DNA from: an uncultured virus (IMG/VR IMGVR_UViG_3300030060_001926)
Taxonomy: Duplodnaviria; Heunggongvirae; Uroviricota; Caudoviricetes
DNA length: 64,000 nucleotides
Virus record (IMG/VR): IMGVR_UViG_3300030060_001926
Coordinates: 1 to 64,000 of that record
Direction: 5' to 3' (one strand)
Shown here: positions 39,305-64,000 of the stretch, piece by piece
Position numbering within the stretch: position 1 is the first letter of the stretch
Layout: the number at the start of each line of letters is the position of its first letter
Notes under the pieces: model-generated
What the model saw: only the letters and a program-made list of their open reading frames with translations
Told to the model about the DNA's origin: nothing
The model's database searches: none
Made by a program: the position numbers and the translations under genes

Positions 39305-39655
39305 CTAGCCATCAAGTTCTCTTGCACCCAATACCATACACTTAGGAATTTTATGCACCTGAGAGAACTCAGCAGGCCCAACACAAGCAACTACAGCATA
39401 TTGATAATCATCTTCATGGACAAGATAACCAACAGTATTCATTACAGGTAGCTTTGCTCTTGCTGCTGACCTTGTTTCATCTTTATCAAGCCACTCCGAT
39501 CCACCTGTAGTTTGTGCATCTATCCATTCAATATACATGATCTTGGGTAGCTTTTTAACTACAGTATACTTAGCCGAAGAAGTATTCTGAGTTGAGGACT
39601 TCTTTGATGTCGAAGTCATCCGATCTTTGTGGGACTTCAGGGAGCTTGATTTCAT
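39305..39655 (-). CDS. Conserved phage hypothetical (W.DA...W...TVGYL type); true start probably ~39540
   Basis: Motif pattern common in small phage proteins. Confidence 0.55.
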   Translation of the reverse strand: MKSSSLKSHKDRMTSTSKKSSTQNTSSAKYTVVKKLPKIMYIEWIDAQTTGGSEWLDKDETRSAARAKLPVMNTVGYLVHEDDYQYAVVACVGPAEFSQVHKIPKCMVLGARELDG

Positions 39656-47082: not shown

Positions 47083-48936
47083 CTAGGCTCGAAGCAGGAC
47101 AGCGTCAGCGGGAAGGGCATGGTAGACACGCCCGAGAGTTTCCGCATTCTCGCTCATCACCTCGTTGTACGCCTCGGTGGCGACACGTTCCAAGATGTGC
47201 ATGTGATTCGGGTGAACCCCAAACGCATCATGGATGGAGGTGACGAAGATGCCCAAGGCTCCCAGTTTCCGAATGATCCGAACTGCGATCAGTCGGTCGA
47301 GCATGAAGATCCTTTTCGCCAAGAGCGGCGTTCCGGAATCTTCCAAGGTGTGAACGTAGGTCGAACAGCTGGGCTGTCCGATGACCTTGAAGTTCTCATC
47401 CCTTCGCCTGTACCGAACAGCACGGGTCAGGCCCTTGTGGACTTTGAAGGGTGAGGTCTGGTACTCGTAGCCATCCGTTCCCCTGTAGATGGGGAGATCG
47501 CCGTTGGAGAGGTGATACTTCCAGTTCTTCCGGATCTCTTCCTGAAACGAATCAAGGAAGGGGAACTTGCGATGGAGGACTCTCGTCAACTTCTTCGAGA
47601 GCTTGCCAATGGCTTCCATCTGCTCATCGGGGGACAGGTCCTTACCGATGTGTTCGAGCAGAATCGGATGGATGGACGGCAAACGCAATCCATCTTCCCC
47701 GAAGTTCCACTCACCGAAAGCGTCCTTGCTCATGTCCGTGAGCTTGCACGAGATGGCACTCTCGCCCCCGCCGTACTGGCCGGGAGTAATGCAGCTCTTG
47801 GAGATCGGCTTCAGGTCATCCAAGGAGTGAATCCTGAGATTACGGATGCTATCCGTGAGACCCTGTGAGAACCGATCATGAGCACTGAGGAAGTGCGGAC
47901 TCGCAACGTTCACCATCTGATGGTGTTCCGAGAAGTTTTGCCTCGCTGCGATGAGACCCATGCCCTGTGCGACAAAGTCGCGGTACACGGTGTAACTGGT
48001 GCTACCAGTCTCTCTGGCTTCGAGCCAACCGCGAGCAGCGGCCAACTCATCAGCGAACTTCTTGCCCTTCGCGTGGAACATCAGTTGTTCCTTGCTCTTG
48101 GCATCGCGATCCACTTTGTTCGCCCACGCATCTCTCATCGCGTCGGTCCACCGCCTAGTCCCGAAGGATTCGGTGATGTGCCTGCGAAGATTGAGCCAGC
48201 CCGCGTCCGTCAACTTCTCAGAACGCCCCTGCATGACGCACCGGAGGAACCGGCTGTAGACAGGGTGAAGGGCCTTCGGGTACATTCGACCCGACTCGTC
48301 CATGCGGGAAACAACGAGGTGGAACAAGTTTTCCTCGATCCGGTCGAAGAGGTCTGCCAGCTTATCGCCGGAAACCTGATCCTCTTCCGAAAGAAGGGAC
48401 TCGATCACCTCATCCTCGTAGTCGTAGAAGATCTTGTTACGATCCTCTTCCGACAAGCTTTCACGGAACCGCTTGACATCGTCCCAGTTCGACTGGTTGA
48501 TGGTCCACGGCTTGTCCGTGAGGAGCTGCATGGCCTCCGACTGCTCGTCCGAGACCTTGAGGTCAATGCGACGAGCAACGTGTGGTTGCACGTTGGGAGG
48601 GGTTCGGTGGGCGAGACGACGCTGAGGTGCGACCCACTTGTCCCGGTCGAGCCGTTCCAAGTTGTCGTCCAGTCGTTCGAACACGACCTTCTGCACCTCA
48701 TTCATCGAAGACACCATCTGGATCTTGGTCTCCCGTCCGTTCCTCTTGAGAGGTTCGGTTTCGAGCGACAGTTCCGAGCGGAACGTCATCCAAAGTGAAA
48801 TGGACATCTCCGACATCATCCAGCTTTCGGACTTCTTGTCCTCCAGCCACGGCTTGAGCTTCGACTGGAGGAGATCGTCCGTCAACTGACGGAGCTTCGC
48901 CTTCGAGTCGTTAGCAAGCGTCTTACAGAGTTTCAT
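47083..48936 (-). CDS. Second, divergent and shortened T7-type single-subunit RNA polymerase (617 aa)
   Basis: 'MDESGRMYP' (DxxGRxY), motif A 'RDFVAQGMG', motif B 'KPISKSCITPGQYGG', motif C 'TSIHDAFGVHP', in correct order. Confidence 0.8.
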   Translation of the reverse strand: MKLCKTLANDSKAKLRQLTDDLLQSKLKPWLEDKKSESWMMSEMSISLWMTFRSELSLETEPLKRNGRETKIQMVSSMNEVQKVVFERLDDNLERLDRDKWVAPQRRLAHRTPPNVQPHVARRIDLKVSDEQSEAMQLLTDKPWTINQSNWDDVKRFRESLSEEDRNKIFYDYEDEVIESLLSEEDQVSGDKLADLFDRIEENLFHLVVSRMDESGRMYPKALHPVYSRFLRCVMQGRSEKLTDAGWLNLRRHITESFGTRRWTDAMRDAWANKVDRDAKSKEQLMFHAKGKKFADELAAARGWLEARETGSTSYTVYRDFVAQGMGLIAARQNFSEHHQMVNVASPHFLSAHDRFSQGLTDSIRNLRIHSLDDLKPISKSCITPGQYGGGESAISCKLTDMSKDAFGEWNFGEDGLRLPSIHPILLEHIGKDLSPDEQMEAIGKLSKKLTRVLHRKFPFLDSFQEEIRKNWKYHLSNGDLPIYRGTDGYEYQTSPFKVHKGLTRAVRYRRRDENFKVIGQPSCSTYVHTLEDSGTPLLAKRIFMLDRLIAVRIIRKLGALGIFVTSIHDAFGVHPNHMHILERVATEAYNEVMSENAETLGRVYHALPADAVLLRA

Positions 48937-49202: not shown

Positions 49203-49574
49203 TCAGGTGAACAGCTTGAGGTCCTTGACAGCCACGCTCTTGTCGAGCGTCCACTCGGTGAGGTTGAAGTAGGGTTCGGGAACCCAGTGCAACTCTTCAC
49301 CCAGCTGATTGGCCGTGACGCAGACACGCATCACACACCAACGCGTCCTTCCGCCGCCAATCCTCTGAGCGAAGACGTGCGGCTCCGAAACGAAGCTGTC
49401 GTCGGACTCCGGCACGTAGTCGTGGAGCTTCTTGATCTTGTCGATCATCTTCTCCAGCTCCGGGCCGTTGCAATCCTGAAGTGCCTTCTCGAAAGAAGAC
49501 GCGAACAGGACGTTAGTCCTGAACTCTATCGGCGTGCCTACAACACGACGATGCACGGTAATGGTAGCATCCAT
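49203..49574 (-). CDS. Early hypothetical protein
   Basis: 123 aa, GGAG RBS, GC-rich codons. Confidence 0.6.
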   Translation of the reverse strand: MDATITVHRRVVGTPIEFRTNVLFASSFEKALQDCNGPELEKMIDKIKKLHDYVPESDDSFVSEPHVFAQRIGGGRTRWCVMRVCVTANQLGEELHWVPEPYFNLTEWTLDKSVAVKDLKLFT

Positions 49575-49686
49575 AATGCTTACTCCATTAGAGAAACAGT
49601 GTTAGCTCATCACGCGATGAGTTAGTACTGCGGAAAGCCTCAGTCACCCGTTAGGGCAGCTGAGACTGAGTGAGTCTCTGGGGGTA

Positions 49687-49956
49687 TCACTCCCCCCTTT
49701 CTGGTATCCGGTCCCAGAGAGCCGGAACCTCTGCACATTTCACGCAGACTTCTCCGTATCTCCACTCCGGGAACTCGTGCGACCCGGTGTTGACCTCCAC
49801 CGTGAGGTACGGTGTGTCACACTTCTCACACCTGAGTTCCTCCACAGCCTCCGGAGTCTCCGCTTCCGGATTCCTCAGGAAGGGGATCACAGTCGCGAGG
49901 ACCATGAGGCCGATGAATGGGATGGCGAAAAGGACGATAAGGATGATGGTGAACAT
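49687..49956 (-). CDS. Early membrane-anchored protein with CxxC...CxxC
   Basis: 89 aa; N-terminal TM, 'CEKC' and 'CVKC'; AGGA RBS. Confidence 0.6.
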   Translation of the reverse strand: MFTIILIVLFAIPFIGLMVLATVIPFLRNPEAETPEAVEELRCEKCDTPYLTVEVNTGSHEFPEWRYGEVCVKCAEVPALWDRIPERGE

Positions 49957-50054
49957 TTGCTATTCCTTTCTAAGAATAGAGGGGTAACGGGGGGTAGCAC
50001 AAAAACAATTTATACTACATGGCCTCGTGGATATTCTCGACCCCCTAGTCGATT

Positions 50055-50581: not shown

Positions 50582-53500
50582 TTACTGTCCGAACAATCCT
50601 TTCGGTGCTTCTTGAGTATCCCTGTCAATAATAGAGCTTACGACATCTTCGGGTTTGGAAGTAGGGGTAGTGATTTCGGGCGGCGCGGGTTGTTGGAGCG
50701 CGGCGGAAGAGGGTTGATTAACGGGGGCGGGGGGAGTGCCTATATTTTCAAGGGACTGCACAAGAGCCTGCCTAGTGTTAAACTCTTTAATTACATCTGG
50801 AATATTTCCATCTAAAACCTGCTTATACATTTCCTTGGTATCATTATTCCACGTAATGGCTGCATGACTGCTTCTCATTCCGTAATGCAAGTTTGGAGTT
50901 TGAGAGCTGCCTGTAGTTCCTCCTCCTCCTGTTCTTCTGTTTGAATCCCTTGAGATTCCATCTCCACCTAGAGTGTACACACCTAATCTTATAGCTGAAT
51001 CTGCATAAGGAATAATTCTGGTAGCGTTTAACATGTCTTGGTTATTGGGCATTGTAGTTAAGCCAAACATAGCTGCTCCTGCTTGAGCACCAGTAGATAC
51101 AGCTCCTAGTGTAGTACCTAGTGCAGCAAAGGGAATGAACCCAGTATTCTTAGACAATGCTCTAGAGAAGTCATATTGACCGGGGAATTTGCCTTGTGCG
51201 ATTCCGTCAATACCCATAGCAAGGACAGGGCCTAGAAGACTTAGCCATCTACCTAACAGAGGAGTTCTCACAAGTAGTTTAGAGAACTTAGCAAATCCGT
51301 CTTCTTCATACTCTTCTAGAATATCATCTAGTTCAATTCCTGCAGCTAATTGAAGTGCGGTCATGTAAAGCATATCCATGAGTAATAGACTGGTAAGACC
51401 AAAGGCTGTTCTACCCACGCTGCTCCTACTAGTCCTTCTAATCATTTGTTGACTAGCGAACAGTACAGGGTATCGACGATAGATTTCAAACAATGCACTT
51501 GGAGTATCTAGCTCTCCTGTTCTTACGTCAAATACATTGGGAGTAAGAATAGCTTCTTCTACGTACTTCCTTTCTACTTCTTTCAATCCAGTAATTACAT
51601 CTAGCTTTCGGTTATAGTCTTGTCTGTCAAGTCTAGAAGAGCGAGTTGTAAAGAGTTCGTGACTCATTTCAAAGGGTGAGTATCTACCTTCTTCTGGCAT
51701 CATGGTTTGCATATCAATGACTTTATCTACCTGTAACAACCCAGCCCTCATTAGATAAGATACAAGTTGTAGATCGCCTTCAAAATTACTGTACCCAGAT
51801 TCTTTCATAGCTCCCTTTAAAGCTCTCTCTTGTTCTTCTATAGGTAATTTATCAATATTTTTCTCTTCTAATTTAGTTGCTAGCTCAAGCAGTTTACTTC
51901 TTCCTTTACTATCTAAATCTAATCCGCTTTGAATCCAAGAACGAGCATTGATGGCTCTAGCAGCAGTAATATTTTTAAGCTGCCATTTAGCCAGTCTCAT
52001 TTGTTCGTTACCCATACCTTTAAATAATTTCATAGTTATGCCATCTTCTTGGGAACCAAAAGGTTTTTCAAACTCAGGTAAGTATCCTTGTGTCATTGAA
52101 TCAATGAGATAAGAGAAATCTTTAAGAACTCTTTTTCTTTCTTCTCTATTTGTAATACCCATAATAGGAGCGAAAGCAGTCCTAATAAATCCTGTTAAGT
52201 TTCTTCTGCCAATTAGTTCGTCCAAAGCAGAGTACCCGTTCTCAACAATAGATGTAGCTAAGAATAAGTTACCACCAAAAGCAATTCTAGTGACAGCATT
52301 AGCTACTTCTGGTATAGCTGAGTCTATTGCGTTAGATGGACTAAGCTCTGTGTTTGGTCTTACCTTTCGCATTGCGTTATGCTTCTCATTTAAGATTGTT
52401 ACAGTATCTGAAATTTGGCTCTTTGTTCTTGGGTTATTTTCTCCCTTACTGTCTAAGATAGCGTAGTTAGAATTATTAACAGCACTTAAGAGATTCAACA
52501 CTTGCTTAACATCACCGTGAACACCAAACTCTCTCATTGTTTTCTTTTCAGAAACTTCGTTATAGAGTCCGTGTCTAGCATTTTCTGCAAGAGCGGTTAA
52601 GTCAGTAACAAAGAATTCTTTCATATCATCGTGAGAATTTAACATTGCCTTAACACTAGGTAAGGCGAAGTTATCATTAGGATAGTAAGCTCCTACTGCT
52701 GATCTTTCTAAGAAGTTAAAGAAGATATGATCTAAAGGATTTGTCTGTACACCAAAAGCTGAACTAAGAGAACGTGCTTTAACTCTTCCCTCTACTCTAA
52801 TGTTTGGAGTAATGCCTAGATTTTCCTTAGTCAAGCCTTCTAATCTTCTTGTGTTTACATTTTCTACAGTCTCGATAAACCCTTTGTAAGCTTCTTTAAA
52901 TCTAGTTGTTTGAGTTCTAGTACCCTTAGCAAACATTTGATTAACAGTTACGTTTCCTTTGGTTAGTTGATTCATTAGTTTGGTCGAACCTAATCTAACC
53001 TTATTTAAAGCCATAATATCTCCGCCCTGCAATTTGCTATCAAGTATCATTACCTTGGCTCTTACGTCTCCTGTTTTATCTGTAATAGAGTATTCTAAAA
53101 TAAAGTCGTACAATACTCTGTGATTTTCTTTTAGATTCTTAAGGTCACTAAAGCCTTTAGCGTTGTCTCCCAAGTGGGGTAAGAATCCTGCAGCAAGCAT
53201 CATAGTTCCTTCTACTCTGCCATTTGCATTAAATTCTGATATTAGTTTCTTTTTAATTTCAGCCTTTGCTATATCTACGAATGTTCCCTTTGCTGTAATT
53301 AAATCACTGTTAACACTAGTGCTTAGTCTATAAGGAACTACATTAGTAAAGCCTGTCCCAAACTCTCCGATAGATTGTCCTGTATCAATATTCTTTTCAG
53401 CCATTTGCCTAAACGTACTAGCCATTTGATTTAGCTGTTCTTTGATTAATTGTTTTTCTTCTTCAGAAAGTACTACCCCTAGAGCATCTTCAGATAAATC

Positions 53501-56500
53501 ATATTCGTAACTACCAGCTACAGCTCCTTCATCTACGCTTTCAATAATCTGAACATTCAATACCTTGAATACTTCTTGAGTACTCTTCTTCATTTTCTCT
53601 TCGCCACGTACAGTACTGTATAGAGGTCCGTTTAGTATTTTTACAATTTCTTTTTTATTCTCTCTCATAGACTGAGTAAAGGAACTTAATAATTCTAACT
53701 CACGACGAACTGACGGAGTTCCTCTTGTGTTTGTAAACCCACCAGAGTTAGTAACAACGTTATCGTCAATCAGAGAAGTAAGTAACAAGGCAATTAAGTT
53801 GTGAGAGTTCCAAGTACCTTGGTGACCTGTATCTCCTAACAAAGCACCAACTAACCCGTCTCTTAAGCCCGGACTCATGTTATTTGCGAGGGAACCTAGT
53901 CCTCTATTTACTGGTTCTCCGTAAGTATTAAACAGTCCTTCAGCAAGGTAAACAAAAGTAACAGCCTTTTCAAATGAATCTCCTTCTACTAGTACTCTTT
54001 CTAAATCAATTACAACTTCATCTGTTGGGTTTCGTACTTCATTTTCTAAGTCCTGCCGTTGTGTCTCAGCTGCATACTTACCTTTAACTTGATCTAAGCC
54101 TCCAATATATTCGTACCTAGTCATAGCTATAGTAGAAGCCCCTTCTCCAGCAGTTCCCAAGCCTACTGGTTCTCCGTAGTATCCTTCGCCCTTAGCCATG
54201 ACAATATTATCTAGTTCAGTTTGTTCTTCGGGAGTTAATGAGTCCTTTGCCTTGAGTTCATTTTCCTTTCTAATCATGTTTCTAATTTCTAAATCTTTTA
54301 CTGGATCTACTTTAAGGACTTCTAACTTGTCCATTTTCTTTCTCCACCCAAACCTTTTATCTGCAATGTCAGTACTATCAAATTGATTTCCAGTATAAAC
54401 ATCATTACTGCTATCGTATCCGAAGACATTCAAAGCCATTCTTCTCATCTTCTTATCAAATTCTACATTGTCTGTTTCAAATGCACCTCGTAGAGAAAGC
54501 ATAGTGTTAGACAAGTAGCCCATCATTCTTTTAATAGAGCTAGTAAACTTGCCCCATATACCTAGTTCTTCTGTAGTCAATCCTCTAATAACAGGTTGGA
54601 CATCAGCGAGTAAGTATAGAGAAACAAACCCAGCAATAAACTCTTCTGGATCTTCTATATATCCTAGGAATTCTTCGTTTGCAGCTTCTGTTTCTACGCC
54701 ACCATGCCAAGCTATTACAGCTTTTTTCATCATGCTTCTGCCTGCAGTACTTTGCGAAAGACCTACAAGTTCCATATACTCTGGGCTAAAGTCTTTAATA
54801 AATTTCAATCTAGCAATGTGGCCTAGCTCGTGAGCAATTATTTCTACAGCAGTAAAAGAATCTTTGGCTACTGATCTAAAGTTAGATCCTAGTCGAATAG
54901 TAAACTTACCGCCTGCTCGTTCAGCTTCTGCTCCTCGTTTGAGAATTTGATCCAAAGCTTTGAATTTTAATTCATGAACAATATCAGGGTTTAGCATAAA
55001 TGCTCTTGCAAGTAGAACTTTAACTGCGACTGATTCTTTTTTATCTATTCTTCCATTATGCACTAGCTCATCAATTTGTTTCATTTGGTCTCTTACTAGC
55101 GGTTGCCAGAAAGGATCAAACGTTTCTACTCCATCCCCCGCCTCAATCTTTTTAATAACATCAGTAAGTTCCATAGTAGATCTTCCTACACCAGAATCCC
55201 AGTTCTGTTCAAAAATAGATCCCGGCAATTCATCTCTACTAGTTATATCTGTTAACTCTCTAATAGCATTTCTAATTGCATCTTGCATTTCTCTTTCATC
55301 TTGTACAGAAATACTTCCGTCTTCAGCTGGAGTAACAACTCCCTTTTCAATACGAGTTTGCAAGAAAGAATCATAAGCGTCATCAGGATTTAAAGATCCG
55401 TCTGGATTTTCTAAAAGGAATTGACGAGCTGCATAGTGATGCTTGTTGTTTAGTCGAACGCCTTCATCAGAGATATTCATCTTTATTCTGGCAGACAAGT
55501 CCATCGCTGATTGAAGATCGATAGGCCAGCTATCTGCCTCTAACTCTTCTGGTTTGAAGAATAGTTTAACTTTGTTTTTTGTAAGATCTAGATTTGGATC
55601 TTCTAGCTTTAAAGCAACTAATCTAAGTTTATTAAACGCTGTTTGAGAACCGTTTCTGGTTTCGACAATTAGAGTTTCTAGTTCTTGTTTTAAAGTTTCA
55701 ATTTCTGTTCCCGGTCCGATAGTATCTCTGCTTAACATGTGGACTAGTTTTCTTACTGGGCTGATATAAGATTCTCTCCAAGAGTCAACAGATGTACCTA
55801 GGTTTCCGTCGTTCCATCTAGCTCCTTCTCCAGAAGAGTAGTAGTCTAGATCTACAATCTCTACTATTCGCCCCTCAACGCTTGTCAGAGGATCCCTAAC
55901 ACTTCTGAGGGTAACTCCCCCTTCTTCGGAGGAAGCTCTTAGAAGGGACTCAGAGTCGTTTAAGGCAGCATGTTTAATCGCTGTACCATCGTATCCTAAG
56001 CCACTGGCTACTGCATCTTGCAAGGGAACTGCTCTTACTACTTGACCATTGTTATCTATCTTTACTCCTAACCCCTTGTTAAGCCAACTACTTAGAGTAA
56101 GGTCTCGCATTGTAGTAGCATTTTCAAGAGCCACAAACATTTTCATAGCTTCCTGAGGACCTAAGATTATCTTAGCATTTTTAGCCGTAATCTTTTGAGA
56201 GGTCATAAACATCATACCAAAACCTACAGCTGCTCCATACGGACTCTTTGCAGCTTCTCCTTCTCTTGATTTTCGTGAGATCTGGAGTCTGTATTGGTTT
56301 GTTTTCTTACCTTCTCCTTCCTTTACGTCTTGGTATATAACTTCTTCAATACCTACCTCTAATTCAAATGAAGGCATTCCGGCAACATGCTGTCTAGCTA
56401 ATTCTCTTATCTCTGTTCTCTCTTGAATAGCTTCTTCCGTAGTCATGCCTTTGCCTATCTCTTGTTCCCATGTAGTAGGATCCATAGCAAACTTAGAATA

Positions 56501-59500
56501 CTTTCCTTCCTTGTAAGTTCTTAAGACATTACCATAAGCTTCGGTATATAAGATAGCGGCTAAGAATTTAGCTTTATCTGAACCTTGGACTGCCCACCCT
56601 TCTTTTGTTAAGTCTGAAACTTCGAATAAATCAATCGTTTCAATCTCTTCTCCTTCATCAACTATAAGGGTATTGTAGTCTGCATCTGTACCAAACTTAA
56701 AAGCATCGTCAAGCATAGTTCTTCTTAACAGCGTACCATCTGGATTATCTTCAGAAGCAACTGAAGTAAGGATATCAATCCATTTCATATCGTCTGTTGG
56801 AGGATTAACTACTGCTACTGGATCTCCTCTTCTTGCAATCTCTAGCTTTCTTCTTCCTTCTGGATTTTTAATGTCTCTAGAGTATCGAGCTACATCGTGT
56901 AGTCCGCTAATCCAAGCGTTCCTGTGAGCAACAGTATCTGAAGTTTCAACAAGATCCCTCTCTCTAACCCTTAGCATAACATCGCGTCTTGCTCTTTCTG
57001 CTTCTTTAATAACATAGAACCTAGCGAAGTTTGAAGGCTCTTCTTCTAACTGCCTCTCTAGTCCTCTATCCCTAGCCCATGAATGTACTTCGTAATATAG
57101 TTTTGCAGCTCTTTGACCAGCGTTAGATCCCATATCAATGGCAATGTGTGCAGGCAAGACAGGAAGAACTTGAGGCAATTCTTCTGCATTCCAAGGCGAG
57201 TAGCCTCCAATGGCTTGTCCTCCTACCATAACATCTTCATCTCTAAGAGTCTCTTGATAGTTTCTAATCGAGTGTAGAGGTCCTAGTAAGTTATTTAATC
57301 TTTCTTGAATATGCAATCTTTGAAGTTTAAAGAAACCCATATCATAGTATTGAGATTCTTTATACTTAGGTCTCACAGCCATAGGTCCCTTTCGACCTGA
57401 AGTATGAATCATTACAGAAGTAGGATTATTTTCAGATACATGGTAAGGAGTATATCTAAAAGCTTGGTCAGAAGCCGCGACTACTGCTTTATTTACGAGT
57501 CCTCCTGCCTTATTCTTAAGTTTAAGATATCGGCTTTTTGTCTTAGCTCTTTTCCACTCAGACATTTCGAATTCCATTTCTTGTTGTAGACTTCGGTGTC
57601 GTCTTTCTGAATGATCTCTCCAAGATTCTAAAACCTTTTCTAAGATAGAAGTTTCAGAAACTTCTTCGGTATAATCAGGGAATACATCTGCGGGTGGCTT
57701 GTCGTATCTAGACCATAACAGCATTTCTTGTTTAATCATTAAGTCTTCAACCTTATCTTCCAACTGTTTGTCTGTCATTCCGGAATCTCTGTCTTCTCTC
57801 AATGAAGGATCTCTAAGATCAAACATGCCTAAAGAATCTGCATTATCTTTGTCTGTTTCTAAGAAAGCGTCAAATTTAACTAGAATTTCATCTCTACTTA
57901 ATCCTTCAGCATCCTCGCTCTTAAGGAAATCAAGGAAGCTTTCGTAGTATTTTCCTGTGTCTTTGTCTTGATAAAGAGATTTTCTTGCTACTCTTTCTAA
58001 AGATATGCCCATAGTATCAACTTGGTTACTTGTCGCATAGTCTCTAGTAGAGTTTCCACTAGGAAGCATTAAGTGATATAGCGCGTGTTTTTCAAACCCA
58101 AGGTAATCGTTAATATCAAAGTCAGTAAGACCTAGTAGATCAGCAGCTTCTTGCATTCTTTCAGCATTTAATCTGTATTCTTGAGAGTTTTGAATGTTTA
58201 AAGCTCTTAAATATCCAATAGTTTCTGCCGAAAGTTTGTCTTCTACTCCTGAAAGAATAGCTTGGAACTCTGAATAATTTGGTGATCCGGGGTGGATGGG
58301 TTCCCCTGCTTCTTTTTTCTCTTCTAAGAACTTCTTAGCTTTTTCAAATCGCTCGTCCCATCCCTTTGTTTTCTTCCATTCTTCAAAACTCATTTCGCCT
58401 TGTTTAGTATCTAGTCTCCACATTTGTCTTAACTTAGCATCTAATAGATCAATATGAGTAGCTGTGTTTTCTAAAGATTCTCCTAGGGCTTTATTGTCCA
58501 TCTTCATAAGATCACGCCAAGCATCAATCAAGGGCTTATCTCTATCTTGATCAATCATAAGATACTTATGAACTAAAGTTTTTGTTTTATCGTTAGACCC
58601 TAAAGCAAGCTCTACTAGTAATACTCTAGTTTCATGGTGTCCGGATTGACTAAAGATAGCCTCTCTAATAACTTTAATGTTTTCTTCTGATGGTTTAATA
58701 CCTGCTTCAACCATCGCATTCCAGCCCTCTCCACCCTTAGAAAACTCTTTAATAAAGTTTGGCATACCGCCGCCATAAATTTTTCTCATCACTGGAACTT
58801 TAAAGATACTTCTTAGTTTTTTAATTGCTTCAGCTTGCTTCTTTATTTCTTCATCTGTTTTTGCTTTTTCTTGTAAAGCAAGATAATCTTTTACAGACCT
58901 AATATCAGTATCTTGAATGATCTTAAAGATTTGTCCTAATTCAGAATCAAAACTTGTAACTCCTGCTAAACCCTTGATTGCTGCTAACATATAAAAGTCT
59001 AATTCAGCCTTGGGCTTACCTCTAAATCCTCCGCTAGCTATTCTTTCAATAATTTCTGGGCCAGTCAAGGTCTCTCCATCTACTTCTAACGTTGCAGTTG
59101 GATCATGAGCAAGAGATAGTAGCTTGTGTTCAAACACACCACTGGCTGTTCTATCGCTCCAGTTATCTAAAGACATTAGCATGTCTAAATTAACTCCTGT
59201 TCCTTCAGCCTCTCTAGCTTCTCTTAACTTCATTACTCTTTTAATAGCAGCATCTGTAAAGCCTTTGAACATAGGACCCATAGCTTCAATTGCCATTACC
59301 TCGCCAATTCTACCTAGAGGCACTAACACATGATCGCCGTGACTTAAGTCATACATTAATCCTTCGCCTGTATCAGCTAGGTTTCTTCTATCGATCTCTA
59401 CTTCTTTACCATCGACCTCTACAGTAATGACTCCTTCTTCTACTCCCTCGTTAAACATAACCTTCTCTTGAGTAATCTGGTCATGAATGAATCCTTGTGC

Positions 59501-62500
59501 ATTTCTGGGAACATCAAGAACCATTTCCATTACCATTTCTTTAGCCTTAGCTCTAGTCATTACAGCCTCTTGTAAGGTAGCCCCTACAATTTGAGGAATA
59601 ATAAAGAAGGGTAAGTCAGCCTCATCGCCAACTGGAGAAACTTCTCTATTTCTAAGGTCAGACCATTTAGCGTCTCTCCATGCTTCGTACGCTTGCTTTT
59701 GCTTCTTAGTAAATTTATCTTTACCAAGAATAAATCTCATTCTTTCTCTAGCCTTATAATTCTGAACAATCCTAGCCATTTGCATTGCAGGGATAGGCAT
59801 AGCAAAGTTAATCTCGCCCTCCATTGGGAGCCTGACAGTTACTGGCTCTCCTCCTGCTACAAACTCTTCAGTAGACTCTCCGGGTACGGGGTTACCATCT
59901 TTATCTGCAATAGCTGTTAGGTTTTGAATATTAGGTTGTGGCTTATCGCTAAGGAAGTCTACAATACCGTAACCTGCATTTTTAGCAGAACCATATCCAG
60001 ATCTCCCATTGCCAAAGTCTTCTAGTAAGATTGCATTGTCTCCTTGGTACAATCCTCCTAGGTTATCTATAATAGCATCAGCAATAACATCTTCAATGTT
60101 TTTAGTTAAGATTTCCCCATCAGGCATTACTACTTCGTACATTACGCGGCCTGACTCATCTTGTCTTTTGTTAAGAGTGAGATTAAACTTATCCGCAATG
60201 TTCCTAATATCTCTTATTTTGTTTTGACTAAGCATAGAGGAAACTCTAGCTCGAATATGAAACCTTGCTTCTTGAATCCATTCTCCCTTGTTTCTGGTAA
60301 ACTTTACAGGGAATCCTGTATCGGGATCTACCTCTAAAATCCAACCGCCTTCACGATCAGGATTATCAGGATTAGGTTGTCTTTCGTTAAACAAGGCTTC
60401 GTTAATAGCTGAAGAGGCTTCATCCATTCTTTCTACAAACTCTAAAGCAGTGTAAAGATTTACTGCTGAGTTAGGATTTGATTCGTCCCTAGAAGCTTCT
60501 TCTAAAGAATCAAGAACAGTTGCTAGTTGGTCCTGCCTCCATCCTTCAATTTTTGCTAGACCTCTTTCCTTCCATGCCCTAGCAATTTGAACTAAGCTTT
60601 CAGGATCGTAACGTAAAGTATTTTGAATGATCTGTAAGTCAATCATTGCCGCAGTGTTTACATCAACCAAATCATTATCTCTTAGAGCAGAACGAGATCT
60701 ACCTAATACATTGTTCCTTCCGAACACATGGTATGGTTTTAAACCCACGTAATCTCTAAGATAAGGAGGCATGGCTTGATTAATTTCCCAAGCACTGATA
60801 CCTTCTTCTGGGTCTCGTATACTAGCTAGGTGATTTAGGTTTGCCTCAAATTGAATCCAAGCTTCTACATCTTTATCTAAAGACCTAGTAAACTTTATTT
60901 CTGTTCCTCTCTTTTTGTCCTTTAACTTTTTAACTAGTTCTTGTTTCTCGCCTTTAAGAAGAGTTCTTTCGTCCTCGTTTAGTTTGCTTCGAGCATCCCA
61001 AGCCTCTTTCATTTCCTTTTCACCAATGCCCTTAGCAGCCTTGTTAAAGTTCTCTTCGCTAGATCCTATGCCTAGAACATATAGGTTGTACGAGTTTACA
61101 GCGTGGTAGTAATCCACAAATCCTAGAGCTTGAGCTGCATTGTCTCTTGCTGTAAAACCATCAATTAGTGTTCCGTAAGTTTCTGTAGGACTGTCAAGAT
61201 ACACTGTACCTCTTTGCCTTACGGGTTCATCGAGTTCTTTACCATCTTCATTAGATTTTTCTAAGACAGTTTCTACATCGTAAGAAGTACCTAATACATC
61301 GTCAGAAGAATGGTTATGTACCCAGTCTCCTCTAACGTATTGATACCTTCCTCCAATCCTAATGTCTGTCATTTTACCAACGCCAAGATATTTAATTTTA
61401 CTAGCAGCACTTTCGGATTCTGCTCTAAAGATATCTTCTGCTTCTTCAGTGGTATAGGTTTCGTTCATAACCTTTTCAGATTCTTCGATACCACTTGGTT
61501 CTCTTTCTGCTAAAAGCTCTTTGTTTTCTTTCCATTCAGAATATGGGTGAAGATATCTAGCTATCTCTTCTGCGGTAAAGGTTTCGTTGTTTTCTTTTTT
61601 CCTTGCTAACGCAGAATCAAATAATCTCTGACCGGCATCAAAGAGTTCCGTTTGCTTCTTTCTTTCTTTTGCACCTGTTTGTTGTAGACGTAAGGCTTGA
61701 AACTTTTGAATGTCAGCAATAGTTTCTTCCTTTTGTATGTTAGCAATAATTGTTCTGTATTCTTTGTCTGTTTCTTTTAATGCCTCTTCTAATTCTATTG
61801 CCTCTTTATATTCGTCTGTTTTTTGTCGTCTTTGTTCCTGTGCCTTTCCGATTGTTTCTATCTTTCTTAAATCTTGCATAAGACTTTTGGTAGAATATTT
61901 TTTAGCTGTAACCTTAGACTTTCCTGTTTGAAGTAACTCTTCAATTCGCTCTAAGAATCTCACTCCAGTTTTTGAAGTATCTCCTTGTAATACCTCTCTA
62001 AGTTCTTTAAGTATTTCTCTAGTTTTTTCAGAAAAGTTTTCTACTCTTACATCCTTAGAGTCAGAGTCAGCGATATCTTCTGCCACACTAGAAGCAAATT
62101 CTTGTTGCAACTTTATTATTCTTCTAATTCTGTTATTACCAAATATTACACCCTTATCATCTTTTAAATCTGAGTTTAACAAAGCTATGATCTTATCAAG
62201 CCGGTCCTGCTGTTCAATCAGTGTTTGTAATAAACTAGAAGTTCTTTCGTCATTTATATCAAGATCTGCCATAAGCGATGCAGTTTCTAAAGTTATTTTA
62301 TCCTGCATTTTTTCTAAACGAACTCTTAGAGCAGATAGTCTTTTCTTTTCTGCAATTAGTTTTCTCTTTCTTTTTTCTGGAGGATCTTTTTCTAATTCTC
62401 TGTCTACATCAGTTTCCTCTTTTGAAACCTTTTGTTTAAGGTCAGCTGCTCGTTGAGCAGTTCTAGCTTGTTTTTGTAATGGATCTAATCCCTGTCTTCG

Positions 62501-64000
62501 TACAGGTTCATCAGCCTCAAGACCCGGCTCTTCAGACGTAGGAGGAACAGCAGGAGGATCTTCTACAGCATCCGTTGTATCCTCTGTTGTATCCTCCGTT
62601 GTATCCTCTACAGGTGTTTCTGGATCTTTGGGTGCTACCCTTTGTTTCTTAGGCTTAGGCCCTATAAAGTCTTGTTCAATAGCATCTAGCTCTTTTTGAT
62701 TTTCTTTAGTATCTTCGTTTGCTTTAATCTGCCTTTCGTTTGCCTTATTAATTCTTTTTGCCAGCAATTCACTAGCGACTTTAATTTTATCTTCAGTCGA
62801 TGCACCCTCAAAGTTTTCGCCCATTTCTTTTTGGACTGCGTCCTGTAGATCTTGAGGGACAAGATCAAACTCAGTTCCTTCTTCTATAATTTTATCAATG
62901 TATGCTTCATAAGTCATTCCCTCTGCCTTAGCCTTTTTACCAATCTCAATATGATGACTTACCCAACCTAGTATACTATCAAGACTTTGTGAATCTCCGT
63001 CATTAGCGTTCATAATTGCATTAGCATTTCTTTGTACAACTTCTTGTGCAATCTTAGCCATTAATAATTCTTGATCTATTTGTTCAGCCTCAAAAGCAAA
63101 AACTGATTGACCATCTTCTCCTCTAGTTTTTAACTCCCCGACAATTTCATTTATAGATTCAATAATTTGTAATTTAGATAGTCCTGAATTTTCGTACAAG
63201 CTATGAACAATAGCTGCAAGGATACCAGAAGGTTTCGTGGGATCGTTAGGATCAGTACCCTCTGGACTGTCTACGTCAATCTCTGTTCCTTCTAGGGTTA
63301 GATCTGAGATACCTTCTTTTGTTTTACCTAGAATTTCAATCAACTCTAACCTTGCAATTTGAGTTTCGGGATCAACCCAGCCCTTTGCTGTCTTAATAAA
63401 GTTTTTTATTCCTGCAACTTGGTTTTCTTTTAGAAGAAGATTACTGGTGATCTGAGTAGTTTGTAATCCTACTTGACCAATCCCTAGATATATTCCACCT
63501 ATAGCTGGATTGATTACAGGGGAGAATACAGATTCAATTAAGGATTCTTGTAACATTCCTTTTACAGACATACCGTCACTTGTACCGGCTCTATAAACTT
63601 GACGATACTGGTTAAAGGCTTCAGCATAAAGTCCGGATACTGCACCTTCTCCTACGTCAGCAAGTCTATTGGCTGTAATCCTAGCAAGCATTCCTCTTTC
63701 AGAGAACGACTTTACAGCGGGAATCTTTTGGATTAAAGTAGGCCCGATATTTTCTGGTAAGTATCTTTGAATCCTACTTAAGTTTTTCTGAAACTTAGCT
63801 ACCCATTGTGCAAACTTAACCCCTTGGTATCCTGTCTTTAAGAACTTAGCTACCAGAGTAATCTTAGCACCAAGTACAGCACCTGATCCAAAACTAACTG
63901 CACCTGCTGCTGCGCTAACACCCAAAGATTCTGCGAGGTCTGGGTCATTTAAGATACCTTGTACAACAAAGTTATAAGCATATTCTGCAGCAATCTCTGC
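50582..64000 (-). CDS. Giant internal virion protein (T7 gp16-position, >4,470 aa, 5'-truncated) with RNAP-like core and HExxH motif
   Basis: Frame stays open from 63925 to the window edge; contains 'SDRTASGVFEH', 'LDFY', 'RSIFKVPVMRKIYGGG', 'AHELGH'; C-terminal hydrophobic helices. Confidence 0.85.
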   Translation of the reverse strand, partial: AEIAAEYAYNFVVQGILNDPDLAESLGVSAAAGAVSFGSGAVLGAKITLVAKFLKTGYQGVKFAQWVAKFQKNLSRIQRYLPENIGPTLIQKIPAVKSFSERGMLARITANRLADVGEGAVSGLYAEAFNQYRQVYRAGTSDGMSVKGMLQESLIESVFSPVINPAIGGIYLGIGQVGLQTTQITSNLLLKENQVAGIKNFIKTAKGWVDPETQIARLELIEILGKTKEGISDLTLEGTEIDVDSPEGTDPNDPTKPSGILAAIVHSLYENSGLSKLQIIESINEIVGELKTRGEDGQSVFAFEAEQIDQELLMAKIAQEVVQRNANAIMNANDGDSQSLDSILGWVSHHIEIGKKAKAEGMTYEAYIDKIIEEGTEFDLVPQDLQDAVQKEMGENFEGASTEDKIKVASELLAKRINKANERQIKANEDTKENQKELDAIEQDFIGPKPKKQRVAPKDPETPVEDTTEDTTEDTTDAVEDPPAVPPTSEEPGLEADEPVRRQGLDPLQKQARTAQRAADLKQKVSKEETDVDRELEKDPPEKRKRKLIAEKKRLSALRVRLEKMQDKITLETASLMADLDINDERTSSLLQTLIEQQDRLDKIIALLNSDLKDDKGVIFGNNRIRRIIKLQQEFASSVAEDIADSDSKDVRVENFSEKTREILKELREVLQGDTSKTGVRFLERIEELLQTGKSKVTAKKYSTKSLMQDLRKIETIGKAQEQRRQKTDEYKEAIELEEALKETDKEYRTIIANIQKEETIADIQKFQALRLQQTGAKERKKQTELFDAGQRLFDSALARKKENNETFTAEEIARYLHPYSEWKENKELLAEREPSGIEESEKVMNETYTTEEAEDIFRAESESAASKIKYLGVGKMTDIRIGGRYQYVRGDWVHNHSSDDVLGTSYDVETVLEKSNEDGKELDEPVRQRGTVYLDSPTETYGTLIDGFTARDNAAQALGFVDYYHAVNSYNLYVLGIGSSEENFNKAAKGIGEKEMKEAWDARSKLNEDERTLLKGEKQELVKKLKDKKRGTEIKFTRSLDKDVEAWIQFEANLNHLASIRDPEEGISAWEINQAMPPYLRDYVGLKPYHVFGRNNVLGRSRSALRDNDLVDVNTAAMIDLQIIQNTLRYDPESLVQIARAWKERGLAKIEGWRQDQLATVLDSLEEASRDESNPNSAVNLYTALEFVERMDEASSAINEALFNERQPNPDNPDREGGWILEVDPDTGFPVKFTRNKGEWIQEARFHIRARVSSMLSQNKIRDIRNIADKFNLTLNKRQDESGRVMYEVVMPDGEILTKNIEDVIADAIIDNLGGLYQGDNAILLEDFGNGRSGYGSAKNAGYGIVDFLSDKPQPNIQNLTAIADKDGNPVPGESTEEFVAGGEPVTVRLPMEGEINFAMPIPAMQMARIVQNYKARERMRFILGKDKFTKKQKQAYEAWRDAKWSDLRNREVSPVGDEADLPFFIIPQIVGATLQEAVMTRAKAKEMVMEMVLDVPRNAQGFIHDQITQEKVMFNEGVEEGVITVEVDGKEVEIDRRNLADTGEGLMYDLSHGDHVLVPLGRIGEVMAIEAMGPMFKGFTDAAIKRVMKLREAREAEGTGVNLDMLMSLDNWSDRTASGVFEHKLLSLAHDPTATLEVDGETLTGPEIIERIASGGFRGKPKAELDFYMLAAIKGLAGVTSFDSELGQIFKIIQDTDIRSVKDYLALQEKAKTDEEIKKQAEAIKKLRSIFKVPVMRKIYGGGMPNFIKEFSKGGEGWNAMVEAGIKPSEENIKVIREAIFSQSGHHETRVLLVELALGSNDKTKTLVHKYLMIDQDRDKPLIDAWRDLMKMDNKALGESLENTATHIDLLDAKLRQMWRLDTKQGEMSFEEWKKTKGWDERFEKAKKFLEEKKEAGEPIHPGSPNYSEFQAILSGVEDKLSAETIGYLRALNIQNSQEYRLNAERMQEAADLLGLTDFDINDYLGFEKHALYHLMLPSGNSTRDYATSNQVDTMGISLERVARKSLYQDKDTGKYYESFLDFLKSEDAEGLSRDEILVKFDAFLETDKDNADSLGMFDLRDPSLREDRDSGMTDKQLEDKVEDLMIKQEMLLWSRYDKPPADVFPDYTEEVSETSILEKVLESWRDHSERRHRSLQQEMEFEMSEWKRAKTKSRYLKLKNKAGGLVNKAVVAASDQAFRYTPYHVSENNPTSVMIHTSGRKGPMAVRPKYKESQYYDMGFFKLQRLHIQERLNNLLGPLHSIRNYQETLRDEDVMVGGQAIGGYSPWNAEELPQVLPVLPAHIAIDMGSNAGQRAAKLYYEVHSWARDRGLERQLEEEPSNFARFYVIKEAERARRDVMLRVRERDLVETSDTVAHRNAWISGLHDVARYSRDIKNPEGRRKLEIARRGDPVAVVNPPTDDMKWIDILTSVASEDNPDGTLLRRTMLDDAFKFGTDADYNTLIVDEGEEIETIDLFEVSDLTKEGWAVQGSDKAKFLAAILYTEAYGNVLRTYKEGKYSKFAMDPTTWEQEIGKGMTTEEAIQERTEIRELARQHVAGMPSFELEVGIEEVIYQDVKEGEGKKTNQYRLQISRKSREGEAAKSPYGAAVGFGMMFMTSQKITAKNAKIILGPQEAMKMFVALENATTMRDLTLSSWLNKGLGVKIDNNGQVVRAVPLQDAVASGLGYDGTAIKHAALNDSESLLRASSEEGGVTLRSVRDPLTSVEGRIVEIVDLDYYSSGEGARWNDGNLGTSVDSWRESYISPVRKLVHMLSRDTIGPGTEIETLKQELETLIVETRNGSQTAFNKLRLVALKLEDPNLDLTKNKVKLFFKPEELEADSWPIDLQSAMDLSARIKMNISDEGVRLNNKHHYAARQFLLENPDGSLNPDDAYDSFLQTRIEKGVVTPAEDGSISVQDEREMQDAIRNAIRELTDITSRDELPGSIFEQNWDSGVGRSTMELTDVIKKIEAGDGVETFDPFWQPLVRDQMKQIDELVHNGRIDKKESVAVKVLLARAFMLNPDIVHELKFKALDQILKRGAEAERAGGKFTIRLGSNFRSVAKDSFTAVEIIAHELGHIARLKFIKDFSPEYMELVGLSQSTAGRSMMKKAVIAWHGGVETEAANEEFLGYIEDPEEFIAGFVSLYLLADVQPVIRGLTTEELGIWGKFTSSIKRMMGYLSNTMLSLRGAFETDNVEFDKKMRRMALNVFGYDSSNDVYTGNQFDSTDIADKRFGWRKKMDKLEVLKVDPVKDLEIRNMIRKENELKAKDSLTPEEQTELDNIVMAKGEGYYGEPVGLGTAGEGASTIAMTRYEYIGGLDQVKGKYAAETQRQDLENEVRNPTDEVVIDLERVLVEGDSFEKAVTFVYLAEGLFNTYGEPVNRGLGSLANNMSPGLRDGLVGALLGDTGHQGTWNSHNLIALLLTSLIDDNVVTNSGGFTNTRGTPSVRRELELLSSFTQSMRENKKEIVKILNGPLYSTVRGEEKMKKSTQEVFKVLNVQIIESVDEGAVAGSYEYDLSEDALGVVLSEEEKQLIKEQLNQMASTFRQMAEKNIDTGQSIGEFGTGFTNVVPYRLSTSVNSDLITAKGTFVDIAKAEIKKKLISEFNANGRVEGTMMLAAGFLPHLGDNAKGFSDLKNLKENHRVLYDFILEYSITDKTGDVRAKVMILDSKLQGGDIMALNKVRLGSTKLMNQLTKGNVTVNQMFAKGTRTQTTRFKEAYKGFIETVENVNTRRLEGLTKENLGITPNIRVEGRVKARSLSSAFGVQTNPLDHIFFNFLERSAVGAYYPNDNFALPSVKAMLNSHDDMKEFFVTDLTALAENARHGLYNEVSEKKTMREFGVHGDVKQVLNLLSAVNNSNYAILDSKGENNPRTKSQISDTVTILNEKHNAMRKVRPNTELSPSNAIDSAIPEVANAVTRIAFGGNLFLATSIVENGYSALDELIGRRNLTGFIRTAFAPIMGITNREERKRVLKDFSYLIDSMTQGYLPEFEKPFGSQEDGITMKLFKGMGNEQMRLAKWQLKNITAARAINARSWIQSGLDLDSKGRSKLLELATKLEEKNIDKLPIEEQERALKGAMKESGYSNFEGDLQLVSYLMRAGLLQVDKVIDMQTMMPEEGRYSPFEMSHELFTTRSSRLDRQDYNRKLDVITGLKEVERKYVEEAILTPNVFDVRTGELDTPSALFEIYRRYPVLFASQQMIRRTSRSSVGRTAFGLTSLLLMDMLYMTALQLAAGIELDDILEEYEEDGFAKFSKLLVRTPLLGRWLSLLGPVLAMGIDGIAQGKFPGQYDFSRALSKNTGFIPFAALGTTLGAVSTGAQAGAAMFGLTTMPNNQDMLNATRIIPYADSAIRLGVYTLGGDGISRDSNRRTGGGGTTGSSQTPNLHYGMRSSHAAITWNNDTKEMYKQVLDGNIPDVIKEFNTRQALVQSLENIGTPPAPVNQPSSAALQQPAPPEITTPTSKPEDVVSSIIDRDTQEAPKGLFGQ
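62571..62610 (-). repeat. 12-bp tandem repeat encoding (EDTT)3 in a linker of the giant protein
   Basis: tccgttgtatcc-tctgttgtatcc-tccgttgtatcc on the + strand. Confidence 0.8.

Follow-up and report, generated by a model that had tools for sequence, protein, structure and literature searches.

A giant cysteine-free late protein of a T7-architecture phage with motifs resembling those of single-subunit RNA polymerases

The giant late gene of this phage raises the question of whether an RNA polymerase lies within a protein that may enter the cell together with the phage DNA. The window, the whole stretch of DNA analysed, is 64,000 nucleotides long and represents positions 1-64,000 of a full IMG/VR record of 82,250 bp. 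The giant ORF runs off its end. Residue numbers here are those of P0001, the last 4,472 aa of the giant, inside the window; full-length numbering is P0001 + 247.

50582..64000, minus strand: giant ORF, extending to 64741 in the record; 4,719 aa in total

The giant has 47 database relatives, about 20 of which are 4,650-5,635 aa in size. Its 4,719 aa contained no Cys, and Cys was also absent from 14 of 16 full-length homologs and from a protein with 99% identity to N4 vRNAP; the other proteins of the phage that were compared contained 0.3-3.3% Cys. In the literature we found no description of this ~5,000-residue Cys-free family, and tblastn of the giant against 50,697 phage GenBank records gave no match. 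A single-protein search for related loci in viral and metagenome contigs found none, and the related-locus search with family alignment A2 found 2. An ORF of at least 1,282 aa that also lacks Cys (window 1-3846) had no BLASTP similarity to the giant or to the 1,352-aa ORF and was rejected as a relative of either.

The phage has tube, nozzle, portal and terminase genes of T7 type that all share one strand, and differs from N4 in this respect. The genes run from tube A, nozzle and spike onwards to TerL, small ORFs, the 1,352-aa ORF and the giant, which ends the late operon. The 82-kb record contains the tube/nozzle/terminase module in duplicate, which may reflect a chimeric assembly. Because of its lack of Cys and its late-operon position, the giant is presumed to be an ejected virion protein. 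It would thus resemble the T7 gp16-type ejection proteins, large virion proteins presumably ejected before the DNA. A sequence-only reading had assigned the giant to the gp16 position. That assignment did not hold, as the gene follows the large terminase gene and the ORF of ~1,350 aa and does not lie between the nozzle and fibre genes. Unlike the gp16 type, the giant has no lytic transglycosylase domain detectable by Pfam. It is 3.6 times the length of T7 gp16, a protein of 1,318 aa.

The same reading had placed an N4-style polymerase inside the giant. As the best explanation, at about an even chance, we see a central module that derives from the palm and fingers of a single-subunit T7/N4-type RNAP and has diverged past the reach of standard profile searches. 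Somewhat short of an even chance, and a serious contender, is a non-catalytic explanation. The giant would then be an ejection or scaffold protein serving as a DNA conduit or in DNA protection, and its helical core would either resemble a polymerase by chance or be a dead relic (pseudo-polymerase) for DNA/NTP binding.

57671..59563, minus strand: polymerase-like central core, P0001 1480-2110; second AF2 model, pLDDT 76.3
59477..59491, minus strand: FIHDQ, with invariant D1507 (23/23), 109 residues ahead of D1616
59126..59161, minus strand: motif A-like block WSDRTASGVFEH, D1616-x3-SG, with D1616 and S1620 near-invariant and a helix after the block in both models
58979..59005, minus strand: D-x-Y block ELDFYMLAA (D1668), with counterparts QDIY in T7, NDLY in N4 and PQDLY in the canonical RNAP
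58766..58813, minus strand: motif B-like block RSIFKVPVMRKIYGGG, R1730-x3-K1734-x7-Y1742-G, at the C-terminus of a long helix

All the strings named earlier (the motif A-like block, ELDFYMLAA, motif B and QVDTMGISL) were found where they had been placed, in a single minus-strand reading frame, with 118 residues between D1616 and K1734 and 265 between R1730 and D1995, as had been estimated. The N4 motifs and spacings given there for comparison also agree with the N4 sequence (D559, K670, D951, KIFDGMNIGL), and the canonical RNAP of this phage does carry PQDLY, alongside DFRGR, RKVAKRSTMCDAYG and VHDSYG.

Conservation of the core motifs was assessed with ~22 giant homologs of 3,397-5,635 aa. D1616 was kept in 22 of the 24 rows of alignment A1, both exceptions being misaligned fragments, and in all 19 rows reaching this column in an anchored realignment. 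The D1668 column had D in 21 and E in 2 of 23 rows. At motif B, R1730 and K1734 were each found in 21/21 rows and Y1742 in 22/23; the following G was variable. The R, K and Y of motif B and the motif A Asp are the NTP-binding residues in T7/N4. That exactly these residues are invariant, in homologs otherwise 22-58% identical to the query over the core region, argues against a non-catalytic core. So does the presence of three co-linear motifs with N4-like spacing: motif A and D-x-Y are 52 residues apart and D-x-Y and motif B 62 (51 and 56 in N4 vRNAP).

Composition shuffles of the giant gave Rx3Kx7YG by itself in 72 of 2000 cases but the ordered pattern D...SG(74-130)Rx3Kx7YG in 3 of 2000, a further point against the non-catalytic explanation. 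The combination of motifs A and B exceeds chance expectation. At motif B, R, K, V, M, Y and G occupy the same positions as in T7 RNAP (PF00940), and both proteins have D-x3-SG from the motif A Asp. In contrast, the N-terminal domain, specificity loop and C-terminal FAFA of T7 RNAP were not recognisable in the giant. Another candidate for motif A, D1641 ('LEVDGE'), was favoured by hhalign and had T7-like spacing, but was rejected because many members of the family have a deletion there.

In the AF2 models, a long helix carries motif B, with the Y at its end as in the O-helix. In model 1, D1616 is in a loop of pLDDT <50 with no strand ahead of it, and model confidence is low over the putative palm (P0002 400-520). 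The models are chiefly helical, with few strands at the place of the palm sheet, which speaks for a non-catalytic core.

The standard homology and fold searches, all negative or at noise level, point the same way. Pfam gave no hit at E<=1 for the whole giant or its pieces, PF00940 RNA_pol included. The N4 vRNAP families PF21769, PF21894, PF21624 and PF21867, which N4 homologs carry, are in the Pfam set, and none matched the giant. PHROGs gave no match to the whole giant or its pieces, and phmmer of the giant against PDB sequences gave nothing relevant. The expected polymerase fold was not retrieved by Foldseek from the PDB or BFVD. The searches with both models against the PDB, and that of BFVD, returned noise (GPCRs, designed bundles, tape-measure proteins); an N4-like vRNAP chunk at rank 20 (E 0.94) was not meaningful. 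A further VIA structure comparison with the PDB gave nothing, and ESM Atlas gave no usable match.

VIA-align over 48,161 chains ranked the human mitochondrial RNAP, POLRMT, 8th and T7 RNAP 17th with model 1, and 10th and 36th with model 2. Both alignments begin at model-2 residue 134, corresponding to T7 534 and POLRMT 919. This shared start lies 3 residues before D1616 and before the motif A Asp, thus placing D1616 on T7 D537; its POLRMT equivalent is presumably D922. The match to T7 RNAP 534-694 is weak (120 residues, 3.6 A, 17% identity). The retrieval of T7 RNAP and POLRMT twice each in motif register argues against a non-catalytic core. That the core is some other family-A-like nucleotidyl transferase (a DNA polymerase, primase-like enzyme or terminal transferase) delivered with the genome, not a promoter-specific RNAP, is very improbable: Rx3Kx7YG is also common to family A DNA polymerases, and no promoter-recognition element or T/DxxGR was recognisable in the core, but the only polymerases in the VIA lists were RNAPs (T7, POLRMT), and none was a Pol I-type DNA polymerase. 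Both D-x3-SG and D-x-Y are blocks of the RNAP type, and a family A DNA polymerase and a primase-helicase are among the phage's own genes.

Profile comparison by hhalign gave motif B against N4 motif B as the best local match (P 0.0035-0.0037). When an N4 A-C subprofile was compared with 21 windows of the giant, the motif B window came top (33.0, P 0.0035; next unrelated window, 25.1), with P ~0.07 after correction for the 21 windows. Over whole domains, Prob was <=9% against N4, and P was 0.085 or worse against T7. The positive controls with the same small alignments gave E 4e-9 (96%) for N4 versus T7 and E 7e-9 for a 617-aa RNAP of this phage (see below) versus T7. The giant showed no similarity to the family of this 617-aa RNAP (P 0.58-0.66) and was rejected as its relative. 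Homology of the core to T7/N4 RNAPs is not proven.

The region after motif B bears on whether a second catalytic carboxylate is present.

58175..58210, minus strand: LRALNIQNSQEY, with conserved N1935-x-x-N1938-S; N1938 in 24/28 rows
58091..58120, minus strand: FDINDYLGFE, alternative candidate motif C, D1965-x-L-G, from manual comparison with T7 HDSFG
57986..58078, minus strand: block YHLMLPSGNSTRDYATSNQVDTMGISLERVA, including the string proposed earlier as motif C; R1986, Y1988, G1998, R2003

Conservation in homologs supported the A, D-x-Y and B residues but not the Asp of the proposed motif C, QVDTMGISL (57998-58024). D1995 was D in 3 of 29 rows (4 if P0034, with its shifted D, is included), whereas 19 rows had Asn, and this poor conservation rules it out as the second catalytic carboxylate. 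The YHLMLPSGNSTRDYATSNQVDTMGISLERVA block, in which R1986 was kept in 31/31 rows and G1998 in 28/29, looks more like a T/DxxGR+NPQG-like segment than motif C; hhalign matched it to N4 1428-1443 (P 0.023) and T7 373-442 (P 0.085). By its sequence, LRALNIQNSQEY could be either the counterpart of T7 N781-x-x-H784-S, from manual reading, or the motif C position, along one hhalign path. In the latter case the conserved N1938 would replace the catalytic Asp, a point for the non-catalytic explanation. The D1965 column had D in 26 and E in 2 of 32 rows, and G1968 was kept in 27/33; neither hhalign nor AF2 secondary structure confirmed D1965 as motif C. No invariant Asp was found at the expected motif C place in the family alignment. 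D1965, the N1938 position and D1507 are candidates for the second carboxylate. The failure of the sequence-only reading to find DxxGR was borne out: two literal D..GR strings (P0001 residues 1281 and 4030) are at positions that are not conserved, and no conserved GR-type motif was found upstream of motif A (P0001 1478-1580), again in favour of a non-catalytic core.

The closest parallel in layout is with N4. N4 gp50, the vRNAP of Schitoviridae, is 3,500 aa long, with mini-vRNAP at residues 998-2103. Like the giant, it is a single huge Cys-free chain encoded among late/structural genes, with a motif A Asp, D-x-Y and Rx3Kx7YG at near-equal spacing and HExxH downstream of the core. The giant differs in being 1,200 aa longer, in having no significant sequence or profile similarity in the polymerase domain and none of the Pfam vRNAP families, and in that TxxGR and the motif C Asp were not found in canonical places.

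54521..54847, minus strand: zincin-like HExxH domain (AHELGH ... PEEFIA), invariant in a 7-sequence alignment

By hhalign this domain matched N4 vRNAP 2223-2346 (C1 region) with Prob 47.5% and P 1.9e-4 (reversed control, P 4.2e-3). It lies ~1,050 aa downstream of the core in the giant, but directly after it in N4 gp50. The domain order of the giant, with a long N-terminal part, the central motif region and the HExxH domain, resembles that of N4 vRNAP. Published accounts describe an HExxH zincin-like domain beyond the RNAP core of N4 vRNAP (PMC5512222, PMC13434306), and one reports N4-like RNAPs as always fused to a zincin-like domain (PMC5512222). The giant is also like the phage 'polyvalent proteins', as treated by Iyer et al. 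2017 (PMC5512222), in being a huge multidomain late-gene product with a zincin-like MPTase, although the other effector domains catalogued for them were not recognised in the giant by Pfam or PHROGs.

The lineage already has two conventional RNAP genes, which again favours a non-catalytic giant.

47083..48936, minus strand: cryptic single-subunit RNAP, 617 aa, within a GC-rich island immediately downstream of the giant gene
39570..42021, minus strand: canonical T7-like RNAP (Pfam RNA_pol 1.5e-43)

The 617-aa protein was missed by both Pfam and PHROGs but is T7/N4-RNAPII-like by the profile comparison given above. We regard as solid its placement in the T7/N4-RNAPII family, where it is a new and divergent member; the GC-rich island that houses it is conserved. 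The apparent split of the canonical RNAP comes solely from 10 consecutive N at 40174-40183. An N4-RNAPII-like split was rejected as an artefact of this gap; relatives carry a single 819-aa ORF. In the early region, the sole outcome of a repeat search was a small CCCC-GAAG-GGGG hairpin family (46318-46460), and no convincing promoter family emerged when the whole genome was searched for direct repeats.

Of the proposal of an N4-style vRNAP in a gp16-position protein, the Cys-free late protein, the N4-like order and the A, D-x-Y and B motifs stand; the proposed motif C (D1995) and the gp16 slot do not, and the database searches lent no support. If the central module is indeed polymerase-derived, its conserved T7/N4-like nucleotide-binding motifs suggest that the giant may be an enzyme co-injected with the DNA to start infection. 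The giant would be a component of the virion that is ejected together with the DNA, a 'polyvalent' protein on the N4 vRNAP plan, comprising a long N-terminal stretch, the central module (~P0001 1480-2110), a zincin-like HExxH domain and a C-terminal part that is conserved. The module would keep the motif A Asp D1616, D-x-Y and an NTP-binding motif B helix (R1730, K1734, Y1742). Once ejected, it might bind NTP and template and transcribe the first-entering genes, which may include the GC-rich island with the small RNAP. In N4, the vRNAP transcribes the N4 RNAPII genes. It is possible, though we consider it unlikely, that the giant is an active, rewired vRNAP with the permuted order A, B, C-like, T/DxxGR+NPQG-like, so that a T7-architecture phage would use three ssRNAP-type enzymes, with the T7-like and 617-aa RNAPs, in a cascade. 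Were this true, the cascade could run the entire infection without host RNA polymerase.

To our knowledge, no phages other than the N4-like ones (Schitoviridae) have so far been found to deliver a single-subunit RNAP with the virion. If active, the giant would represent a second, far more diverged vRNAP lineage, inside T7-architecture podoviruses, and would link the transcription strategies of T7 and N4. It would also be a new polymerase scaffold invisible to standard annotation, and would suggest that enzymes are hidden in other orphan giant 'internal virion' proteins. Whatever the outcome, the ~5,000-residue Cys-free family and the 617-aa RNAP both stand as results.

The window spans bases 1-64000 of a virus record of 82,250 bp. 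The giant open reading frame (ORF) lies at 50582-64741 of the record on the minus strand and encodes 4,719 aa. The window covers its last 4,472 residues (P0001), whose numbering is used here unless full-length numbering (P0001 + 247) is stated. From four strings, the sequence-only reading had proposed that a core like that of the N4 virion RNA polymerase (vRNAP) is contained in this protein. All four were found where it had placed them:

59126-59161, minus strand, motif A-like string WSDRTASGVFEH, in frame in the giant ORF
58979-59005, minus strand, D-x-Y string ELDFYMLAA, in frame in the giant ORF
58766-58813, minus strand, motif B-like string RSIFKVPVMRKIYGGG, in frame in the giant ORF
57998-58024, minus strand, proposed motif C string QVDTMGISL, in frame in the giant ORF

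The motifs used for comparison were also correct. PQDLY is present in the canonical RNA polymerase (RNAP) of the record, alongside DFRGR, RKVAKRSTMCDAYG and VHDSYG, and the N4 sequence carries TRVGR, EADGVTNG (D559), RGIAKNPLTITIYG and KIFDGMNIGL (D951).

Conservation among giant homologs (alignments A1 and A3 and an anchored realignment) upheld the motif A Asp, D-x-Y and motif B, but not the motif C Asp, D1995. D1616 of motif A was found in 22 of 24 rows of A1, the two misses being misaligned fragments (P0034 and P0038), and in 19 of 19 rows of the anchored realignment, where one homolog without an anchor (P0011) was left out and 4 rows ended early by the 135-residue window; it is kept in all rows truly covering that column. 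S1620 was conserved in 20 of 22 rows, and D1668 was Asp in 21 of 23 and Glu in the other 2. In motif B, R1730 (21/21), K1734 (21/21), R1739 (22/23) and Y1742 (22/23) were conserved, while the Gly following the Tyr was variable. The distance from A to D-x-Y is 52 residues in the giant, 51 in N4 and 32 in T7; that from D-x-Y to B is 62, 56 and 58, respectively. When the giant was shuffled 2000 times, the ordered pattern D...SG(74-130)Rx3Kx7YG arose in 3 of the shuffled sequences.

D1995 was Asp in only 3 of 29 rows (the window protein, P0003 and P0022; 4 of 29 if a shifted Asp in P0034 is included) and Asn in 19. The block around it is strongly kept (P1980 24/30, S1984 25/30, R1986 31/31, G1998 28/29, R2003 26/29). 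With hhalign, this block was matched to the T/DxxGR and NPQG segment of N4 (1428-1443, P 0.023) and to T7-like RNAPs (R1986 with R425, Y1988 with Y427, G1998 with G436; P 0.085), neither match being significant alone. As the earlier reading had noted for DxxGR, no conserved GR-type motif was found upstream of motif A in the giant family. Three positions are candidates for the second carboxylate, none of them established:

D1965, in FDxxDxLG, Asp in 26 of 32 rows and Glu in 2 of 32; it lies 27 residues past the conserved N1935-x-x-N1938-S, compared by eye with T7 N781-x-x-H784-S ... D812
N1938, a position set on T7 HDS by one hhalign path
D1507, in FIHDQ upstream of motif A, invariant (23/23)

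The main rival explanation is an ejection protein with a non-catalytic core, which would resemble a polymerase by accident or would be a relic carrying Asn where motif C has its Asp. We give this explanation a little under an even chance. The conserved Asn (N1938) that one hhalign path sets at the motif C position is what a relic would show; the conserved residues of motifs A and B and the few shuffles with the ordered pattern are on the other side.

Searches of Pfam (maximum E 1), PHROGs and, by phmmer, PDB sequences gave no polymerase match for the giant, whole or in pieces; unlike the giant, N4 vRNAP homologs have four dedicated Pfam families. We then compared hhalign profiles of 19-26 giants, 15 N4-like vRNAPs (N4, 10 diverse Schitoviridae loci and 4 close homologs) and 10 T7-like RNAPs. 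When the full giant was aligned with full N4 (4,719 x 3,500 space), the best local match was a 16-column one adjacent to T/DxxGR (P 0.023), and the second-best placed full-length 1794-1995 on N4 1459-1681, motifs A-B on A-B (P 0.036). Restriction to the A-C regions gave P 0.0037, from 22 columns around motif B, against 0.82 for the reversed-profile control. When 21 windows taken along the giant were compared with N4, the motif B window was top (score 33.0; next unrelated window 25.1), with P ~0.07 once corrected for the 21 windows. Against T7 profiles nothing rose above noise (best P 0.065-0.2), though motif B does pair with motif B. In the same alignments, the controls were strong: N4 with T7 (Prob 96%, E 4.2e-9) and a 617-aa RNAP of this phage with T7 (Prob 95.8%, E 7.3e-9). 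Therefore, judged from sequence, the giant core, if a polymerase, would have diverged far beyond the N4-T7 distance.

Two AlphaFold2 models, of P0001 1051-2200 (P0002; 29-row alignment, mean pLDDT 73.4, pTM 0.53) and of 1480-2110 (38 rows, pLDDT 76.3, pTM 0.50), were mostly helical, with motif B closing a long helix at its C-terminus. A helix also follows D1616, yet in model 1 this residue is in a loop of pLDDT <50, and the would-be N-terminal palm (P0002 400-520) is of low confidence. Foldseek found no match in PDB at E<=0.001 for either model, and a BFVD search likewise gave none. The VIA-align lists from 48,161 representative chains were dominated by helical bundles matching an inserted bundle (P0002 766-869). 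Two single-subunit RNAPs, T7 RNAP and human mitochondrial RNAP (POLRMT), were in the lists of both models. The model-2 alignments to these two begin at model residue 134, 3 before D1616 (model 137), and on the target side 3 residues before T7 D537 and its POLRMT equivalent, D922. This register is that of the sequence motifs. In sum, we put the chance that the giant core is polymerase-derived at about even, and consider it rather doubtful that it is an active RNAP.

An AHExxH motif (P0001 3056-3061) and a downstream PEEFIA are invariant in a 7-sequence alignment. With hhalign, full-length 3299-3407 matched N4 vRNAP 2223-2346 around the HELVH and NEFMA of N4 (Prob 47.5%, P 1.9e-4). Sequence support for likeness between the two domains is moderate, because the reversed control reaches P 4.2e-3. 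The giant also resembles N4 vRNAP in its domain order (N-terminal part, A/B-motif core, HExxH domain, large C-terminal part), in its lack of Cys and in its late-gene position. According to Iyer et al. (PMC5512222), RNAPs of the N4-like type are invariably fused to a zincin-like domain of this kind. A 2026 N4 structure paper places HExxH in CTD subdomain C1, residues 2124-2375 (PMC13434306).

A word-index search found 6 giant relatives of 3,397-5,183 aa, with 24-57% identity across the core, and an exhaustive phmmer search against 1.84 billion representatives yielded 47 at E<=0.001; about 20 of these have 4,650-5,635 aa and the remainder are fragments. The family had no match among 50,697 GenBank phage records. 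The giant has 0 Cys in 4,719 residues. Cys is likewise absent from 14 of 16 full-length homologs and from a protein with 99% identity to N4 vRNAP; in the other proteins of this phage it makes up 0.3-3.3% of residues. We regard the absence of Cys as good evidence for ejection of the giant. An Alteromonas podovirus paper ties the lack of Cys in N4 vRNAP to passage into the cell (PMC3821669). A 1,732-aa fibre-like ORF (window 10580-15778, minus strand), with a weak match to the T7 tail-fibre N-terminus (Pfam E 8.8e-4), has 57 Cys (3.3%), in strong contrast to the giant.

All window genes are on the minus strand, in this order of transcription:

first, the giant
second, a GC-rich island at ~45,800-50,000 (50-60% GC vs ~40%)
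next, small early ORFs, thymidylate synthase and the T7-like RNAP
then SSB, RusA, tRNAs, primase-helicase, family A DNA polymerase, exonuclease, dUTPase and RNR
then portal, scaffold, capsid, tail tube A, nozzle and large fibre-like ORFs
last, TerL, a 203-aa ORF and a Cys-free ORF of at least 1,282 aa running off the record

The rest of the record (64001-82250) holds a second gene set (tube A, nozzle, spike, TerL, small ORFs, then a 1,352-aa ORF that immediately precedes the giant) with 40-50% aa identity to the copies in window 1-19674. Tail tube A, nozzle and TerL are thus present in two divergent copies in the 82-kb record, and the large downstream ORFs differ between copies. Since the second set is only 40-50% identical, the record looks like ~1.25 genomes, probably from two related phages of ~64-67 kb that were joined as a chimera or by scaffolding; it also has a 10-N gap (window 40174-40183). 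The order that runs from TerL through small ORFs and a ~1,300-aa ORF to the giant and then the GC-rich island is genuine: a 63,394-bp relative (G001) shares it. The giant is therefore the final gene of the late operon. It lies after these genes and outside the T7 gp16 slot that had been claimed for it. The ORF of at least 1,282 aa (window 1-3846, minus strand, 0 Cys) and the 1,352-aa ORF (record 64738-68796, minus strand, 2 Cys) lie beside the terminase/giant region and showed no BLASTP similarity to each other or to the giant; both are candidates for additional ejection proteins. Three tRNA genes lie in a row at window 35585-35862 (minus strand): Leu-TAA, Lys-TTT and Arg-TCT.

The 617-aa protein is encoded within the island (window 47083-48936, minus strand) and was missed by Pfam and PHROGs. 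It has 6 homologs of 608-617 aa, 49-98% identical, with invariant motifs: RMDEsGRM (DxxGR), DFVAQGMG (A), Kx3Kx7Y-x-G (B) and SIHDAF (C). Its profile found N4 RNAP2 (6dt7_B) first among PDB sequences (E 1.5e-5), and its hhalign match to T7-like RNAPs extends over T7 313-831. By these sequence comparisons it is a cryptic single-subunit RNAP. In G001, a high-GC island and the 617-aa gene (65% identity, 464 aligned positions) directly follow the giant gene; therefore, the lineage has two conventional single-subunit RNAPs in addition to the giant. The canonical T7-like RNAP (L017, window 40159-42021) has at most 28% identity to any RNAP in the 50,697 GenBank records, the best match being Stappia phage SI01, which places the lineage far from cultured Autographiviridae. 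Its apparent split into 620-aa and 252-aa ORFs is an artefact of the 10 N; in relatives, G001 among them, the gene is one uninterrupted 819-aa ORF. A Pistol ribozyme (Rfam RF02679; window 45531-45607, minus strand; 51.7 bits vs gathering score 34.5, E 1.6e-6) lies at the island's low-coordinate edge. Downstream of the 617-aa RNAP gene, a 27-nt unit with a CCCC(C)GAAGGGG hairpin occurs three times (window 46318-46460; spaced 46 and 67 nt), a candidate terminator, RNA element or promoter hairpin.

In the available texts, this family is not described, and no T7-architecture phage is reported to carry a giant protein resembling vRNAP; the nearest accounts are of N4-like phages and of the Alteromonas AltAD45 phages, which have a vRNAP in two parts (PMC3821669). 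We rate the giant as a vRNAP-type polyvalent ejection protein with putative enzymatic activity. From its Cys-free composition, size, operon position and the analogy with N4, it would be packaged and ejected. Its core may bind NTPs via R1730, K1734 and Y1742 and metal via D1616, because these residues are invariant and their equivalents in T7 and N4 bind NTP and metal, respectively. We speculate that it would then transcribe the first DNA entering the cell, for which the adjacent GC-rich island with its mini-RNAP gene would be the natural candidate template.
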